A stretch of DNA of 64,000 bases from Spirochaetales bacterium (GTDB lineage Bacteria > Spirochaetota > Spirochaetia > SZUA-6 > RPPD01), in contig JAFGSW010000039.1 of NCBI GenBank assembly GCA_016934415.1, positions 4,224 through 68,223 of the forward strand, written 5' to 3'. A program made the position numbers and the translations under genes. The notes under the pieces were generated by a model. The model worked only from the letters and a program-made list of their open reading frames with translations, did no database searches and was not told the DNA's origin. Positions 9,841-64,000 of this stretch are shown piece by piece. Every line of letters begins with the position of its first letter. The stretch's first letter is position 1.

Positions 9841-11339
9841 AACTCGCCCGGCCGGCGGGAATCGCGGACTACGCCAAGCGCGGCCCGGCTTTCCTTTTCT
9901 TCCTGGGCCTTGTTGCGGCGGCTCTCCTCGTCATGTATCTCAACCGCCCCGAGCTCTCGATTGCGGCCTGCCTCATCGCGATGGGCGTGGGCGGCTGGGG
10001 AGCGGCTCGATTCTCAGCGAAGGGAAAGAATGATGTGTTCGCCTGGCTCGCGCTCGGCGTGGCTTCGGGGCTCCTTGTGGGAGGCGCGCAGAGCTACGCG
10101 CTCGCCGCGGAACGCGCCGCCTCGCATACGGCCATTCCGCTCGACGCGGCCTTCAGCTTCCGCCTGACGCTCACCGCGGACGGCGTGACCGCTCAAAACG
10201 GCGTGAAGGTGTACGCGGCCTCGCTCGCGGAAGCCGCCAATCGAAGCGGCGACAGGCGGGCTTCGGCTTCGGGCGCGGTCGCGGTGTTCGCGCCGAACGG
10301 CCCGGATCTTTTCTGGGGAGAGACGATCGACGTCGAGGGGACGCTTCGCGAAAATCAGGTTCCGGGCGGCGCGCGTTTCGTCCTCAACGCCCGCGGGCGG
10401 AGCGTCATGCGGCTCGGTTTCAACAGTCCGCTTCTGGCCGCGCGCGCCGCGGCGGTCCGCGCCTTTCTGGCCCGGATCGGGCGTCTCGGCGCCCCGGCCT
10501 CCTCCCTTTTCGCGGCCCTTTTTCTCGGCGTCAAGGACAATCTCGAGTTCGAGCTTCGCGACGCGTTCGCCCGCACCGGCAGCCTGCACCTGCTCGCGCT
10601 CTCCGGGCTGCACGTGGGCATGATCGCGGCCCTGGTCCTGTTTTTTCTCTCTCCCCTGCGCTCCAAAAAACTGAAAGCCGTCCTCGCGGCGCTTTTCGTG
10701 GGCGCTTACTTTTTTCTGGCCGGTCCCTCTCCTTCGCTGTTGCGCGCGGTGCTTATGCTCGGCCTCGGTACGATCGGCCTGCTCCTCGACCGCGAGGTCG
10801 ATCCGCTCCACGTGCTCCTGGCGAGCGCGGTCGTCGTCCTGCTCGTCGACCCGGAGAGCGTCCGTTCCCTGTCGTTCCAGCTCTCCTACCTCGCCCTGGC
10901 CGGCATTCTGACCTTCGGCCGCAGGCTGAACCGCGCCCTGACCCCCTTCCTGCCGGGCTTCGCGCGCGGACTCGTCTCCGCCGTGATCGCCGCCCAGGCG
11001 TTTACGGCGCCGCTTATCTTTCAGACGTTCGGCACCGTCTATCCGGTCGGCCTCGTCGCGTCCCTCCTCCTGGTTCCGCTCACCACGGCGTACGTCTGGT
11101 CGGGAACGGGATTTCTCGTCGTGAGCCTGATTCCGTTTCCGCCGCTGGAAGAGGCGGTCCGTTTTCTCATGGATGCCCAATACCGCCTCATCTTCGGAAT
11201 CAGCGATTTTTTTAAAAACGCGCCCGGCGTCACCGTCGTCTGGAGCGACTGGCTCTGGATCCCGGCGCTCGCGGCATGGCTTGCCCTGGTCGCGGGGATT
11301 CCGGTACAAAGAAGGCATGAATTACGACTCACCGGCTGA
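9834..11339 (+). CDS. comEC: ComEC/Rec2 family competence membrane protein
   Basis: Polytopic membrane protein with SGLHVGM motif. Confidence 0.7.
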   Translation: MVKLARPAGIADYAKRGPAFLFFLGLVAAALLVMYLNRPELSIAACLIAMGVGGWGAARFSAKGKNDVFAWLALGVASGLLVGGAQSYALAAERAASHTAIPLDAAFSFRLTLTADGVTAQNGVKVYAASLAEAANRSGDRRASASGAVAVFAPNGPDLFWGETIDVEGTLRENQVPGGARFVLNARGRSVMRLGFNSPLLAARAAAVRAFLARIGRLGAPASSLFAALFLGVKDNLEFELRDAFARTGSLHLLALSGLHVGMIAALVLFFLSPLRSKKLKAVLAALFVGAYFFLAGPSPSLLRAVLMLGLGTIGLLLDREVDPLHVLLASAVVVLLVDPESVRSLSFQLSYLALAGILTFGRRLNRALTPFLPGFARGLVSAVIAAQAFTAPLIFQTFGTVYPVGLVASLLLVPLTTAYVWSGTGFLVVSLIPFPPLEEAVRFLMDAQYRLIFGISDFFKNAPGVTVVWSDWLWIPALAAWLALVAGIPVQRRHELRLTG

Positions 11340-59971: not shown

Positions 59972-61192
59972 TCAGCGGTACGGTTTCTTCCGGAAGGACT
60001 CGTCACGGCGGCAGGCTTTCTCGTAGTACTCCCCGGCCGCGGCCTTGTCCCCCAGCTTGAATTTGGCCATACCAAGGTAATAGTCGCTCTCCGCGTCGTC
60101 GAAGCCCAGGCCGCGGGCCTTCATAACGTCCTGCAGGCCAGGGGCGGCGTCGCCCGCCTCTATCCTGGCCGCGCCGCGGTTATGGATCGCCAACAGCTCG
60201 TTCGGGTTCAACGCCAGGGCCGCGTCGCAGTCGGCGACGGCGCCCGAGTAGTCGCCGCTGAGCGTCTTGATATCGGCCCGGTTGACGAGATAGCCCGTCT
60301 CTTTCGGATCGAGCCTCACCGCGGCGTCCAGATCCGCCAGGGCGCCCGGGTAGTCGCCCCGGCTTCTCTTCAGGAGCGCGAGCGCTCCGTAGGGCGGCGC
60401 CGAGTGAGGATCGAGCTCGATCGATCGCCTGTAATCCATCTCCGCCCCCGCCGGGTCGTTGCAGCCTTCCTTCGCGACGCCCCGGTGAAAAAACCACTCC
60501 GCCCGTTTGCCGTCGAGGCGGATCGCCCGATTGAAATCCTCCAGCGCCGCCTCGTACCGTTCCTGCCGGTTCCGGCAGAGCCCGCGCAGGAAGTAAGCCA
60601 TCGGCTGGAAGGGATCGATTTCAAGCGACGTCGAATAGTCCTCAATGGCCTTGTCGTCCATCCGCAGGAGCCACTCGGCGATGCCGCGGTTGAAATGCCA
60701 TTCGGCGTCCCCCGGTTTGAGCGCGATGGCTTGGTTGAAATCCGCGAGGGCGGCCTCGTTGTCACCCAGCATTCCGGAACAGATCCCCCGACGGAAATAG
60801 ACCTTGGGGTCCTGCTTCGGGTTGAGCGAGATGCTTTTGGAGTAGTCGGCGATCGCGCCCTTGAGGTCGCCGAGCCCTTCCCTGGCGGCACCGCGGTTGT
60901 AATAATAGAAGTAAAAGTCCGGATCGAGCTCTATCGCCTTGTTGAAGTCTTCGAGGGCCGCTTTATCGTCGCCCGCCCATCCCTCCATGAGCCCCCGCCA
61001 GGAATAGGCGCGGGCGTCGCCCGGGTCGAGCTCGATGGCCCGGTTGAGATCGGCCAGGGCGCCTTCCCTGTCCGTGTCCATTTTCTCAATGGCCCGATCG
61101 ACGAAATCCTTGGCCGTCGTTTGGGCGGAAAGGAATCCGCCGGCCGCGAAAAAGAGCGCGGCTGCGCACAGGACCGGGAAAAATCTTTTCAT
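59972..61192 (-). CDS. secreted TPR repeat protein
   Basis: Signal peptide followed by more than 8 TPR units. Confidence 0.8.
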   Translation of the reverse strand: MKRFFPVLCAAALFFAAGGFLSAQTTAKDFVDRAIEKMDTDREGALADLNRAIELDPGDARAYSWRGLMEGWAGDDKAALEDFNKAIELDPDFYFYYYNRGAAREGLGDLKGAIADYSKSISLNPKQDPKVYFRRGICSGMLGDNEAALADFNQAIALKPGDAEWHFNRGIAEWLLRMDDKAIEDYSTSLEIDPFQPMAYFLRGLCRNRQERYEAALEDFNRAIRLDGKRAEWFFHRGVAKEGCNDPAGAEMDYRRSIELDPHSAPPYGALALLKRSRGDYPGALADLDAAVRLDPKETGYLVNRADIKTLSGDYSGAVADCDAALALNPNELLAIHNRGAARIEAGDAAPGLQDVMKARGLGFDDAESDYYLGMAKFKLGDKAAAGEYYEKACRRDESFRKKPYR

Positions 61193-61427
61193 GGGAACGC
61201 TCCTTCACGGCGCGGCGTGCCCGACCCGCGGTCGTCGTATCAAACAGCATAGCGCCGGGGAGCGCGGATTTCAAGATAAGGATGGCACGGATGGGGGAGG
61301 GGGAGGTGGAAAAATCAAGGTATGCGATGTATTACATCCAGACTTGATCGTGTTTCATCACAGCGCTCAGTTTTTCACCGAAATAAAAAATGTAATCGTA
61401 CGGCGGCGGCATCCGTCTCGAATCTAT

Positions 61428-62153
61428 TCATTTAAAAAGCGAGAATGATGCATGGTATTCGTCAAGCTCCCAATTGTGGGAGTTATAGTGGACATATTCC
61501 CTGATTTTATCCAATTCCCGGTCGTTCCGGATTATTCGGTCGTAGAATCGGGGTTGCCAAATCGGTGATCCGATGCGCACCGTGACGGCGGATTTGAAGC
61601 CGGCTACAAACGACGAAAAGGATTTCGGGGAACGATTCGCGATAGGGCACGATTTTTTGGAATCCGATTGTAGAGACGCACGGCCGTGCGTCTCTACGTT
61701 TTCCGGCTTATAAACGTGATCCCGGTTCACGCGAACATTCCGCGGGTCTTCGCGGCCATGTGTCCGTACAATTGTATCCCTGATAATCACGATCCCGTGC
61801 ACGTGATTGGGCATGACGCAATACGCGTCACAATCCAATTCCGCGCGGATCCCGAACGATTTCAACCATTCCGACTCGACGATTTCACCCGCCGGCGACA
61901 ATTGCATTCGCCCCCGGACGACGCCGCCCAGGAGACATTCCATGTTCCGGGTGCACAGGGTGATGAAATAATACCCGGGAGCGGAATAATCCCGGTTTTT
62001 CAACCGCGTCGAATCGATTCTGTATTTCGTTACATTCAAATTCCGGCTCACGGCATTCCCGCCTTTCCACGCATAAGGAAACCGCGGTTTCAGCCCGGTG
62101 AATTCAAATACACGTTCGCATCGGGGACAGGGTTTTGGGGAGTTAATTGGCAA
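61428..62153 (-). CDS. REP-associated tyrosine transposase (RAYT, IS200-like HuH); a REP palindrome lies inside the ORF
   Basis: YYFITLCT, MPNHVHGIVI (HuH), and FKSAVT..WQPRFYDRIIRN..YVHYNSHNWELD motifs. Confidence 0.7.
   Translation of the reverse strand: MPINSPKPCPRCERVFEFTGLKPRFPYAWKGGNAVSRNLNVTKYRIDSTRLKNRDYSAPGYYFITLCTRNMECLLGGVVRGRMQLSPAGEIVESEWLKSFGIRAELDCDAYCVMPNHVHGIVIIRDTIVRTHGREDPRNVRVNRDHVYKPENVETHGRASLQSDSKKSCPIANRSPKSFSSFVAGFKSAVTVRIGSPIWQPRFYDRIIRNDRELDKIREYVHYNSHNWELDEYHASFSLFK
61670..61697. repeat. REP palindrome GTAGAGACGCACGGCCGTGCGTCTCTAC (inside the RAYT ORF)
   Basis: 28-bp perfect palindrome. Confidence 0.7.
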
Positions 62154-62183
62154 CGGAAACCGGTTTTATTTGGGAATTGAATC

Positions 62184-62211
62184 GTAGAGACGCACGGCCG
62201 TGCGTCTCTAC
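62184..62211. repeat. REP palindrome GTAGAGACGCACGGCCGTGCGTCTCTAC
   Basis: Identical 28-mer with a conserved ggaatYSRaTYgtagag 5' flank. Confidence 0.7.
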
Positions 62212-62263
62212 GATACCGTCCAATACATTACTCCGGATTCGCACGTATATTTCGCAAAAAACC

Positions 62264-62282
62264 ACGGCCGTGCGTCTCTACG
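62264..62282. repeat. REP half-copy CACGGCCGTGCGTCTCTAC inside a ~78-bp tandem repeat unit
   Basis: Unit (REP ..ccgtccaata..tccgRa..atttcgcRaaaa) repeated 2.2 times across 62181-62340. Confidence 0.55.
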
Positions 62283-62350
62283 TTTCCCGTCCAATAAATA
62301 GAATCCGAACCGACACGAACATTTCGCGAAAATCCACGGGCGCCTGCGGC

Positions 62351-64000
62351 TTATTTCAAGAGCTCCGCTTTCAGGAACAGGCCCGACGGGGTGAGATCGT
62401 CGTCCGTCCACGGGCCTGAGAGGGAGGCCGACGGCTTCAGGGCGGAGGTGGTTTCGTCGCAGGTGCTGAACGACCAGTTCATCCAGCTCAAATCGTTGGC
62501 GTCCATCCAATCGATCCACTCACGGGCGGAAACGAGGTCCATCGGCCCGGAGCTCAAGTGGAAGGCCGTGCCCCATTCGGTGACGAACAGGGGCAGGCCG
62601 CCGTCCAGGGCCGCCTGCGCGTATCGCCTCACGTCCGCTTTATGGGACGCGGCGTAAAAATGCTCGGTGTACATGATGTTGTCGTACTCCGTGATGGGAT
62701 CCTCCAGCACCAGGTCGGCCCGCTGGCTCCAGAACGGGGTGCCCACGATCACGACGTTGTCGTGATCGTCCGGATCGGAGCGGCGGATGACGTCGATGAC
62801 GCCGTCGCCCGCGTCGTCCGGGTCCCCCACCGCGTAGCGGCGGATTCTTTCCCAGGGGATGTTTCCCTCCGGCTCGTTCGTGATTTCGAAGATGACGTTG
62901 GGATACTTCCCCCATTTCGAGGACATCATCATGAAAAAGGTCTTCGCCTCGCTCAGGTATTCCAGGGGATCCGAATGGACGTGCCAGGAAATGATCACGT
63001 AGATGCCGTTGTTGATCGCGTCCCTGATGAACATGTTCGCCTGGTCGAGCATGTATTCCGGCTGGGAAACGAAGCCGTTCCAATAGCGGCCGTCCTTGAA
63101 CGCTTCAACGTAGAGCGCCATGCGCACCGCGTTGATCCTGAAATATTCCACGCAATGCGGAATCGTCTTCCCCGCCGAGAAGGGAAACCATTGCGGGCCG
63201 TGGGAGCTCACGCCCCGCAGGCGGACGGGGGCCCCGTTTTCCGCGCACAGTCTCCCGCCTTTCACCTGCAGGTGGCCGTTCTCGGCCACCACGCCGGTCC
63301 CCGGGGGATCGAGCGGGCCTTCCCCGCGGTAGAAAAAACCGTAGAGCATGTAGGATGAATTGACCGCGAACGCCGTCGCCACGAGCAGGGCGATGACGGG
63401 AATGAGCTTGAGCGGGTTCACCGCGCGCCGGGGTTTGACCGCGATGTTCGATGCCGCCGTCCGGACGAGCTTCGGTTCCTCCTCGGTTTTTACGATGAGA
63501 CAGCGTCCGCCGCGGTAGGAAATGTTGCCGATCACTTCTCCCCGCGTCAGCCGCCCGCGGCCGGACGGCAGCCGGAGCCGAAGACGGGCGCCCTCCGCGA
63601 TGTTCCGGGGGAAACGGACGATGAGTCTTTTTTCGCCGGCGACGCAGGCGGACGTCACCATATCCCTCCCGCAATCGAGAAGGAGCGGGAAAAAGGCGAC
63701 GTGATGCAGATGCCTGACGCGCATGCGCTGCCGCCGCAGCCCCTCCTGAAAGGCGATACCGATGACGCGGAGCTTTTCGCTTTCGCCGGAACGGGGGAAA
63801 TCGAGCTCGTACCGGTAGGCGGTTCGCTTCCCGGCGACGGGAAAGGCGGTCTTCGCCCGGATGCGCGCCTCAATCCCGCCCGTCGCGGTTTGGCCGTCGC
63901 CGACGTTCAGCGTCAGGACGGTGTCGCGGGGATAGTCATGTGCGCTCATGATGACGGCCGACGATTCGTTCCAGCATTCCACCGGGCACGTCTCGTCGCG
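62351..64000 (-). CDS. GH5 family glycoside hydrolase (cellulase-like) with N-terminal cytoplasmic domain and TM anchor; N-terminus may run past the window
   Basis: NGIYVIISWHVH, FEITNEPEG and VTEWGT motifs; TM segment LKLIPVIALLVATAF; no in-frame stop before 64000. Confidence 0.7.
   Translation of the reverse strand, partial: RDETCPVECWNESSAVIMSAHDYPRDTVLTLNVGDGQTATGGIEARIRAKTAFPVAGKRTAYRYELDFPRSGESEKLRVIGIAFQEGLRRQRMRVRHLHHVAFFPLLLDCGRDMVTSACVAGEKRLIVRFPRNIAEGARLRLRLPSGRGRLTRGEVIGNISYRGGRCLIVKTEEEPKLVRTAASNIAVKPRRAVNPLKLIPVIALLVATAFAVNSSYMLYGFFYRGEGPLDPPGTGVVAENGHLQVKGGRLCAENGAPVRLRGVSSHGPQWFPFSAGKTIPHCVEYFRINAVRMALYVEAFKDGRYWNGFVSQPEYMLDQANMFIRDAINNGIYVIISWHVHSDPLEYLSEAKTFFMMMSSKWGKYPNVIFEITNEPEGNIPWERIRRYAVGDPDDAGDGVIDVIRRSDPDDHDNVVIVGTPFWSQRADLVLEDPITEYDNIMYTEHFYAASHKADVRRYAQAALDGGLPLFVTEWGTAFHLSSGPMDLVSAREWIDWMDANDLSWMNWSFSTCDETTSALKPSASLSGPWTDDDLTPSGLFLKAELLK

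Follow-up and report, generated by a model that had tools for sequence, protein, structure and literature searches.

We found that a predicted REP-associated tyrosine transposase (RAYT) gene from an uncultured spirochaete carries, in frame within its coding sequence, an exact copy of a 28-nt palindrome that also lies just upstream of the gene. The gene is located in a stretch of 64,000 nucleotides (64 kb; contig JAFGSW010000039.1, positions 4,224 to 68,223, of the Spirochaetales bacterium assembly GCA_016934415.1), which we refer to as the window and in which all coordinates are given unless another locus is named. The locus is probably a REPtron like those of TnpAY1 subclass 2.4: an array of the cognate repetitive extragenic palindromic (REP) element lies 5' of the gene, a piece of the array is tolerated inside the gene, and the encoded peptide is a passenger. 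Both the arrangement and the exact hairpin were already described for this subclass in 2018. Quentin, Siguier, Chandler and Fichant (2018; BMC Genomics 19:475, PMC6006769) reported that in-frame REPs between the HuH and Tyr motifs are typical of subclass 2.4, whose REPs include a "double-foot" kind (5' GT[AG]G and 3' C[TC]AC), and their Table S1 gives the identical 28-mer, as a double-foot REP, for the subclass 2.4 protein ACL24330.1.

The palindrome, GTAGAGACGCACGGCCGTGCGTCTCTAC, is perfect and occurs exactly twice in the window, at 61670-61697 and at 62184-62211, both as stated in the original prediction, and not once in 100 dinucleotide shuffles of the window. The first copy, a double-foot REP, lies in frame within the RAYT open reading frame (ORF), where 61671-61697 encode VETHGRASL on the minus strand (residues 153-161, between H119 and Y220). 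The second, identical copy lies in the 5' flank, 133 nt upstream of the probable RAYT start at 62051, and its palindrome extends to 62181-62214. Each is accompanied by a partial copy. A 19-nt right half, CACGGCCGTGCGTCTCTAC (positions 10-28 of the 28-mer), is found 70 nt past the full upstream copy at 62263-62281; the predicted half copy thus exists, although not at the 62264-62282 first given for it. Within the gene, the degenerate copy that had been noticed beside the intragenic REP could be placed at 61742-61769 (coding strand, GTACGGACACATGGCCGCGAAGACCCGC), where it reads VRTHGRE... (VRTHGRE being encoded by 61749-61769) and where its conserved right half begins 72 nt from the right half of the intact copy. 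Among the REP copies of the window that we folded as DNA, only the two full ones formed strong hairpins (intragenic, -13.3 kcal/mol, z -5.3; upstream, -17.2 kcal/mol, z -7.05). The decayed intragenic copy had lost the fold (z -1.15) and the half REP formed no hairpin (z 0.05). The mRNA segment containing the intragenic REP also folded more strongly than its shuffles (z -3.0). Searches of the window with mismatches found no further REP, and the 12-mer arm with two mismatches gave 3 matches against 3.0 expected by chance. A promoter and terminator scan returned nothing above chance that bears on the REPs.

The intragenic insert is larger than the palindrome. An intact REP, a spacer of about 45 nt and a decayed REP together make up 100 nt (61670-61769), and the spacer, 61698-61744, appears to have been brought into the gene along with the REP. 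In an ungapped identity scan, it was identical to a spacer of the upstream array (62282-62328) at 31 of 47 positions, compared with at most 25 of 47 for any other 47-mer of the window. Conserved REP right halves are spaced by 70-73 nt both within the gene and upstream. The upstream array amounts to only about 2.5 weakly similar units, and Tandem Repeats Finder, run on 61400-62450, called nothing; the units are too diverged for that program, and we therefore described them by alignment and by the ungapped identity scan. The unit length of about 78 bp in the original prediction is somewhat too large; the measured period is about 70-73 nt. The common spacer and the common period of 70-72 nt suggest that what the RAYT gene received was either a REP doublet or part of the neighboring array; the route may have been transposition, or else recombination or slippage. 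A comparable arrangement was seen in the RAYT gene of a Methylomonas metagenome-assembled genome (MAG; locus L057), in which two REPs inside the gene, read as VETQNIASLQ and VETQNFASLQ, start exactly 72 nt from each other, at 10256 and 10328 of that locus (span, 10256-10355), and a third REP lies just 3' of the stop codon (10591-10618). As the spacing in this gene equals that in the window, a REP doublet of about 100 nt may be the mobile unit.

The gene that holds the insert is, on its sequence and predicted fold, a divergent member of the RAYT/TnpAREP family, and is predicted to encode a Y1 HuH endonuclease. The longest ORF extends over 61428-62153 on the minus strand (241 amino acids, TTG start), but this start is probably wrong and the true one is probably the GTG at 62051, giving a gene at 61428-62051 (minus strand) and a product of 207 amino acids. 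We prefer the GTG because homologues lack residues 1-41 of the long ORF, for which the predicted local distance difference test (pLDDT) score is below 50. Homologues begin 6-8 residues ahead of KYRI in a 52-sequence alignment; 62052-62153 corresponds to the N-terminal 34 residues of the long ORF, and a purine-rich stretch, GGAAAGG, precedes the GTG. In the 241-residue numbering, which we use throughout, the HuH motif is H117-V-H119 (codons at 61797-61805, minus strand) within MPNHVHGIVI, and the predicted catalytic tyrosine is Tyr220 (codon at 61494-61496, minus strand) of the motif YVHYNS, within YVHYNSHNW; H117, H119 and Y220 do not vary among the 52 aligned sequences. Residues 199-210 read WQPRFYDRIIRN. 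WQPRFYDRIIR (61527-61559, minus strand) aligns with IWQPRFWEHAIR of the E. coli TnpAREP structure 4ER8 (alignment to 4ER8 residues 91-122) and is the counterpart of the segment holding W94, Q95, E100, H101 and R104 of the E. coli protein. These residues have a role in binding GTAG and are conserved in subclass 2.4 (Quentin et al., 2018).

Searches with the single sequence were weak, those against the Protein Data Bank (PDB) being marginal or sub-threshold, and it was a family profile and a fold search that settled the family. We found 575 database relatives, the closest about 50% identical (maximum, 51%). A profile of 52 relatives matched a sole PDB entry, 4ER8 (E 1.9e-6). An AlphaFold (AF2) model built on the alignment of these relatives has a core with pLDDT above 90 (residues 60-124 and 179-230), and its best Foldseek match in the PDB was again 4ER8, a complex with a REP hairpin (E 5.9e-8); the TnpA proteins of ISDra2 and IS608 came next. 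Together with the HuH, Tyr and WQ..R motifs, the agreement of profile and Foldseek upholds the original RAYT call. In the model, the REP-encoded residues fall in a coil (residues 125-178, pLDDT 47-66) between the HuH strand and the helix of residues 179-194. The protein ends 21 residues past Tyr220, with no C-terminal extension. The gene is single-copy in the window and has no tnpB neighbor; exact-product look-ups returned no identical protein for the RAYT with either start, or for the neighboring ORF at 62351-63982.

The fold also matches those of ISDra2 and IS608 TnpA, and a dip in GC content (0.46-0.54 across 61200-62350, against 0.60-0.67 in the flanks) suggests acquired DNA. The locus could thus be read as an autonomous IS200/IS605-type insertion sequence with the palindromes as its subterminal end hairpins. 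We consider this very improbable: the best match is a TnpAREP and not an IS200 TnpA, no complete element is bracketed, as one hairpin is intragenic and the 3' side of the gene has none, and the window offers neither tnpB nor a second copy. Moreover, the hairpin has a GTAG foot and occurs alone in many transposase-less contigs.

We compared 11 homologous genes that hold the exact 28-mer. Their cores share on average 56% of amino acids and 43% of third codon positions (range 31-62%), and the sequences directly bordering the 28-mer are unrelated, yet within the 28-mer identity is 100%. In P0008, L008 and others, translation of this DNA in the other open frame gives RDARPCVST. We also analyzed 78 related genome loci frame-free, using hidden Markov models of the N-terminal and C-terminal cores and counting perfect GT[AG]G...C[TC]AC palindromes. 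Such a palindrome was present in the linker of 42 of the 78 genes, which come from many phyla. There were 45 linker palindromes in total, of which 37 are in frame 0, 8 are in frame 1 and none is in the TAG frame, and the catalytic cores of the 78 genes contain no perfect palindrome. Palindrome density is 5.5 per kb in linkers and 0.02 per kb at more than 1 kb from the gene, a roughly 250-fold enrichment, and 29 further palindromes lie within 300 nt of the RAYT genes.

The 28-mer is a genuine dispersed repeat. In a sample of 132 copies of the exact 28-mer from 120 metagenome contigs, 20 copies (∼15%) lie inside RAYT ORFs and 6 lie within 1 kb of one, while 102 have no RAYT in their locus; 67 of the latter are outside long ORFs. 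We also observed that 18 of the 102 RAYT-less copies (L081-L200) fall within long ORFs that stay open for 80 codons or more on either side; these are candidates for in-frame REP insertion into other genes.

Because nucleotide identity far exceeds coding identity, because copies occur in the two open frames and never in the stop frame, and because the 28-mer is dispersed outside RAYTs, the comparison supports the intragenic palindrome being a REP DNA element inserted in frame rather than a native peptide motif. The original prediction, that a REP was inserted in frame into the very gene encoding its presumed mobilizing enzyme, is therefore supported by the DNA-level identity, by the use of both open frames and by the dispersal elsewhere. 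The opposite account, in which VETHGRASL is a native protein-level linker motif and the upstream palindromes were copied out of the gene, can draw on VETHGRASL being the linker consensus in the homologue alignment, among relatives from many phyla. It would have to accommodate identity at every synonymous site, the alternative reading RDARPCVST, the abundance of the 28-mer far from any RAYT, and a location in a low-confidence coil where some members lack the motif. In addition, distant relatives hold other palindromes of the same design (GTAG...CTAC) at the same place, encoding VGAHGRAPL, VGANGRSPL, VETQNVASL or RDVARNVST. We regard a native motif as extremely improbable.

In-frame REP insertion is thus, on the sequences compared, a property of the family and not a peculiarity of the window gene. 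The homologues come from Cyanobacteria, Bacteroidota, Chloroflexota and scattered other phyla. Alignment to family members, which had been proposed as a check that might refute the prediction, does so only in part: the linker is variable, but most homologues hold the same REP there, so that the insertion is not unique. Palindrome copy number and site vary among homologues, decayed copies are common, and some homologues have short REP-free linkers (P0073, P0097 and P0101). Where measurable, linker length ranges from 19 to 128 amino acids, and the 54 amino acids found here are well inside this range; the linker is therefore not unusually long, contrary to the excess of about 14 residues first estimated for it. 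A second in-frame REP site, independent of the linker, was found in the N-terminal beta-hairpin of some RAYTs (P0073, P0030 and L032:1432-2226), with, for example, ...NDVETHGRASLRRSS... in P0073 and ...IVKTHGRASDIAQ... in L032. Preservation of intragenic copies showed at most a weak trend toward the 3' end: the last copy was the better one in 10 cases and the first in 6, with 3 ties.

Several further features of the homologues bear on the insert. The linkers near the intragenic REP often hold short tandem peptide repeats (P0111, P0005, P0022 and P0067; L023, L031 and L032), among them QSNQSTAP... (in a linker of up to 128 amino acids), ASLPF repeated five times (a reiteration of the REP's 3' end), HDSHDS and NDQPNDQP. 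These repeats point to slippage-prone DNA beside the hairpin. Intragenic and flanking REPs often differ by paired changes in the two arms that leave the palindrome perfect (L012, L038, L039, L048 and L071), as with GCAACGCGTTGC (intragenic) and GTAACGCGTTAC (flanking) in L038. In a Chloroflexota MAG (L009:4024-4557), aacgtcgcc and ggcgacgtt border the intragenic 28-mer and lengthen the perfect palindrome to 46 nt within the coding sequence.

These data fit the following scheme, in which the anatomy of the locus, the family-wide pattern, the DNA-level conservation and the frame filter are observed, as is, in the model, the location in a loop. By analogy with E. coli TnpAREP, the enzyme would bind the folded REP hairpin on single-stranded DNA, the WQ..R motif would read the GTAG foot, and Tyr220 would cut and rejoin the DNA; the enzymatic activity is in this sense inferred. 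REPs would then accumulate preferentially beside and inside the enzyme's own gene, by a route that may be transposition or else recombination or slippage with the adjacent array. Inside the gene, they would survive only where a disordered surface loop joins the HuH strand to helix alpha-C, and only in a stop-free frame, as two of the palindrome's frames are. The insert would be neutral, with the encoded peptide a passenger, and REP copies would decay, as the VRTHGRE copy has done, while new ones appear.

A number of observations weigh against this reading. The first concern the enzyme itself: its Y motif is Y---NS, while the homologue consensus is YIxNNP (Y---NP), and it scores 16.7 bits against Pfam Y1_Tnp (cut-off 23) and 47.6 bits against NCBIfam REP_Tyr_transpos (cut-off 80). 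Many RAYT homologues likewise lack a precomputed Pfam hit. Next, no REP copy is present 3' of the RAYT gene or elsewhere in the 64-kb window, so that a REP family in the host genome is not demonstrated. This absence is uninformative about dispersal because the density of 0.02 per kb around homologues predicts only about one copy in 64 kb. A third point is that assembly continuity across the intragenic palindrome lacks independent confirmation. Finally, the perfect 28-mer is found in genes that are only 46-82% identical, which a neutral insert could achieve only by frequent re-insertion or gene conversion, or else through selection, and the 37:8 excess of frame 0, which common ancestry may have inflated, goes beyond what a stop-codon filter alone would give.

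The point about assembly raises the possibility that the in-frame junction is a chimera, formed when two contigs were joined at a common palindrome. An independent Logan contig of run SRR13394437 (SRR13394437_341497; L201) does break within the intragenic palindrome, at window position 61690: its positions 1-120 correspond to window 61690-61571 on the minus strand and are identical over the 120 end bases compared. However, perfect palindromes routinely break de Bruijn assemblies without chimerism, and the N-terminal and C-terminal cores on either side of the junction belong to the same family and are in frame. The same architecture is found in 42 of the 78 genome loci and at about 20 loci from metagenomes. 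A chimera is unlikely, and to our minds barely credible, because the architecture recurs in these unrelated assemblies.

The conservation of the 28-mer and its frame bias bear on whether the insert is neutral. In the main alternative to our reading, the intragenic REP could be kept for a function, as for example a GC-rich hairpin of 12-14 bp, in mRNA or in the single-stranded DNA of the gene, that the RAYT binds or cuts, giving autoregulation or coupling the enzyme to its REP. Such a role would account for a 28-mer that is 100% identical where third codon positions are only 43% identical, for a perfect palindrome at the same loop in 42 of 78 diverse genes, for the ∼15% (20/132) of sampled copies that lie inside RAYT ORFs, for the 37:8 preference for frame 0 and for the folding of the mRNA segment (z -3.0). 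It sits less well with the 36 of 78 genes that lack a perfect intragenic palindrome, with the relatives whose linkers are short and REP-free, and with the frequent decayed copies, one of them in the window gene; position, copy number and frame all vary as well. Flanking copies within 300 nt are equally enriched, and a simple bias toward local insertion would give the same pattern. Quentin et al. (2018) viewed intragenic insertions as peripheral and probably harmless, and in their structural model the region lies apart from the sites of DNA binding and catalysis. We therefore judge a functional hairpin to be unlikely.

The published neutral account nevertheless leaves unexplained a palindrome that is 100% identical at 43% third-position identity, and a roughly 5-fold preference for frame 0. 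A broader proposal is that the intragenic REP is actively maintained, either as a selected self-recognition or autoregulatory hairpin or by strongly cis-biased, ongoing re-insertion or gene conversion with the enzyme's own gene at its center, the linker acting as a "landing pad" that both records and renews the current substrate. We hold this to be a minor possibility, but one to be reckoned with, and we keep to the reading of a subclass 2.4-type REPtron with a tolerated array fragment.

The window gene resembles subclass 2.4 as published: the insertion region that separates beta-3 (HuH) from alpha-C varies greatly, REPs lie less than 1 kb away, there is no C-terminal extension, and its homologues have a similar taxonomic distribution (Quentin et al., 2018). 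It differs in three respects: the Y motif is Y---NS, whereas the class 2 signature is Y---NP; REPs are found only 5' of and inside the gene, not on both sides; and the insert is an array fragment (REP, spacer and decayed REP) rather than a lone REP. Placement in an MCL cluster and tree, and an 8-amino-acid insertion at the end of alpha-B, are further marks of the subclass (Quentin et al., 2018). Compared with E. coli TnpAREP (4ER8; Messing et al., 2012, PMC3479197), the window RAYT shares the HuH/Tyr fold, the WQPRF..(E/D)..IR segment and GTAG-footed hairpins, but the two proteins are only ∼20% identical and the E. coli gene has no intragenic REP. The E. coli REPs are imperfect, single-footed and present in high copy number, whereas the hairpin described here is perfect, symmetric and of low density (∼0.02 per kb around homologues).

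In-frame REPs are known from other genes. Di Nocera, De Gregorio and Rocco (2013; BMC Genomics 14:522, PMC3733652) described GTAG/CGTC REPs that encode short peptides within genes and are presumed to be tolerated in flexible loops. Their host genes are unrelated (uvrA, uvrB, dnaE2 and recB), while here the host is the gene of the presumed mobilizing enzyme and the insertion recurs across its family. The supplements of that study contain no entry for "transposase", GTAGAGAC or VETHGRA. REPINs (Bertels and Rainey, 2011, PMC3116915) are, like the arrangements in the window and in L057, REP pairs with a short spacer (here a spacing of 70-72 nt). Unlike in REPINs, the REP of the window is symmetric, so that an inverted orientation cannot be defined, and each pair in the window contains one half or decayed copy. 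A full-text literature search for "VETHGRASL" returned no paper, and our literature search found no later paper that goes beyond Quentin et al. (2018).

As found, the locus provides a further instance, in an uncultured bacterium, of a feature that was already on record for TnpAY1 subclass 2.4, and in itself it matters little. It is of some use for annotation, since peptides such as VETHGRASL or RDARPCVST, when met in predicted proteins, represent translated REPs and not motifs, and since assemblies break at such palindromes. The numbers (∼250-fold linker enrichment, no use of the stop frame, DNA-level identity) sharpen, without answering, the question of why the hairpin is found preferentially in the gene of the very enzyme whose substrate it is.

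We made two further observations. A RAYT homologue in a Chloroflexia MAG (L051:9950-10650) has in-frame stops and no linker REP, and is likely a pseudogene. In the window, GC content is 0.46-0.54 across the RAYT gene and the REP array (61150-62350), compared with 0.60-0.67 in the flanking genes, and this low GC suggests that the REPtron was acquired horizontally.

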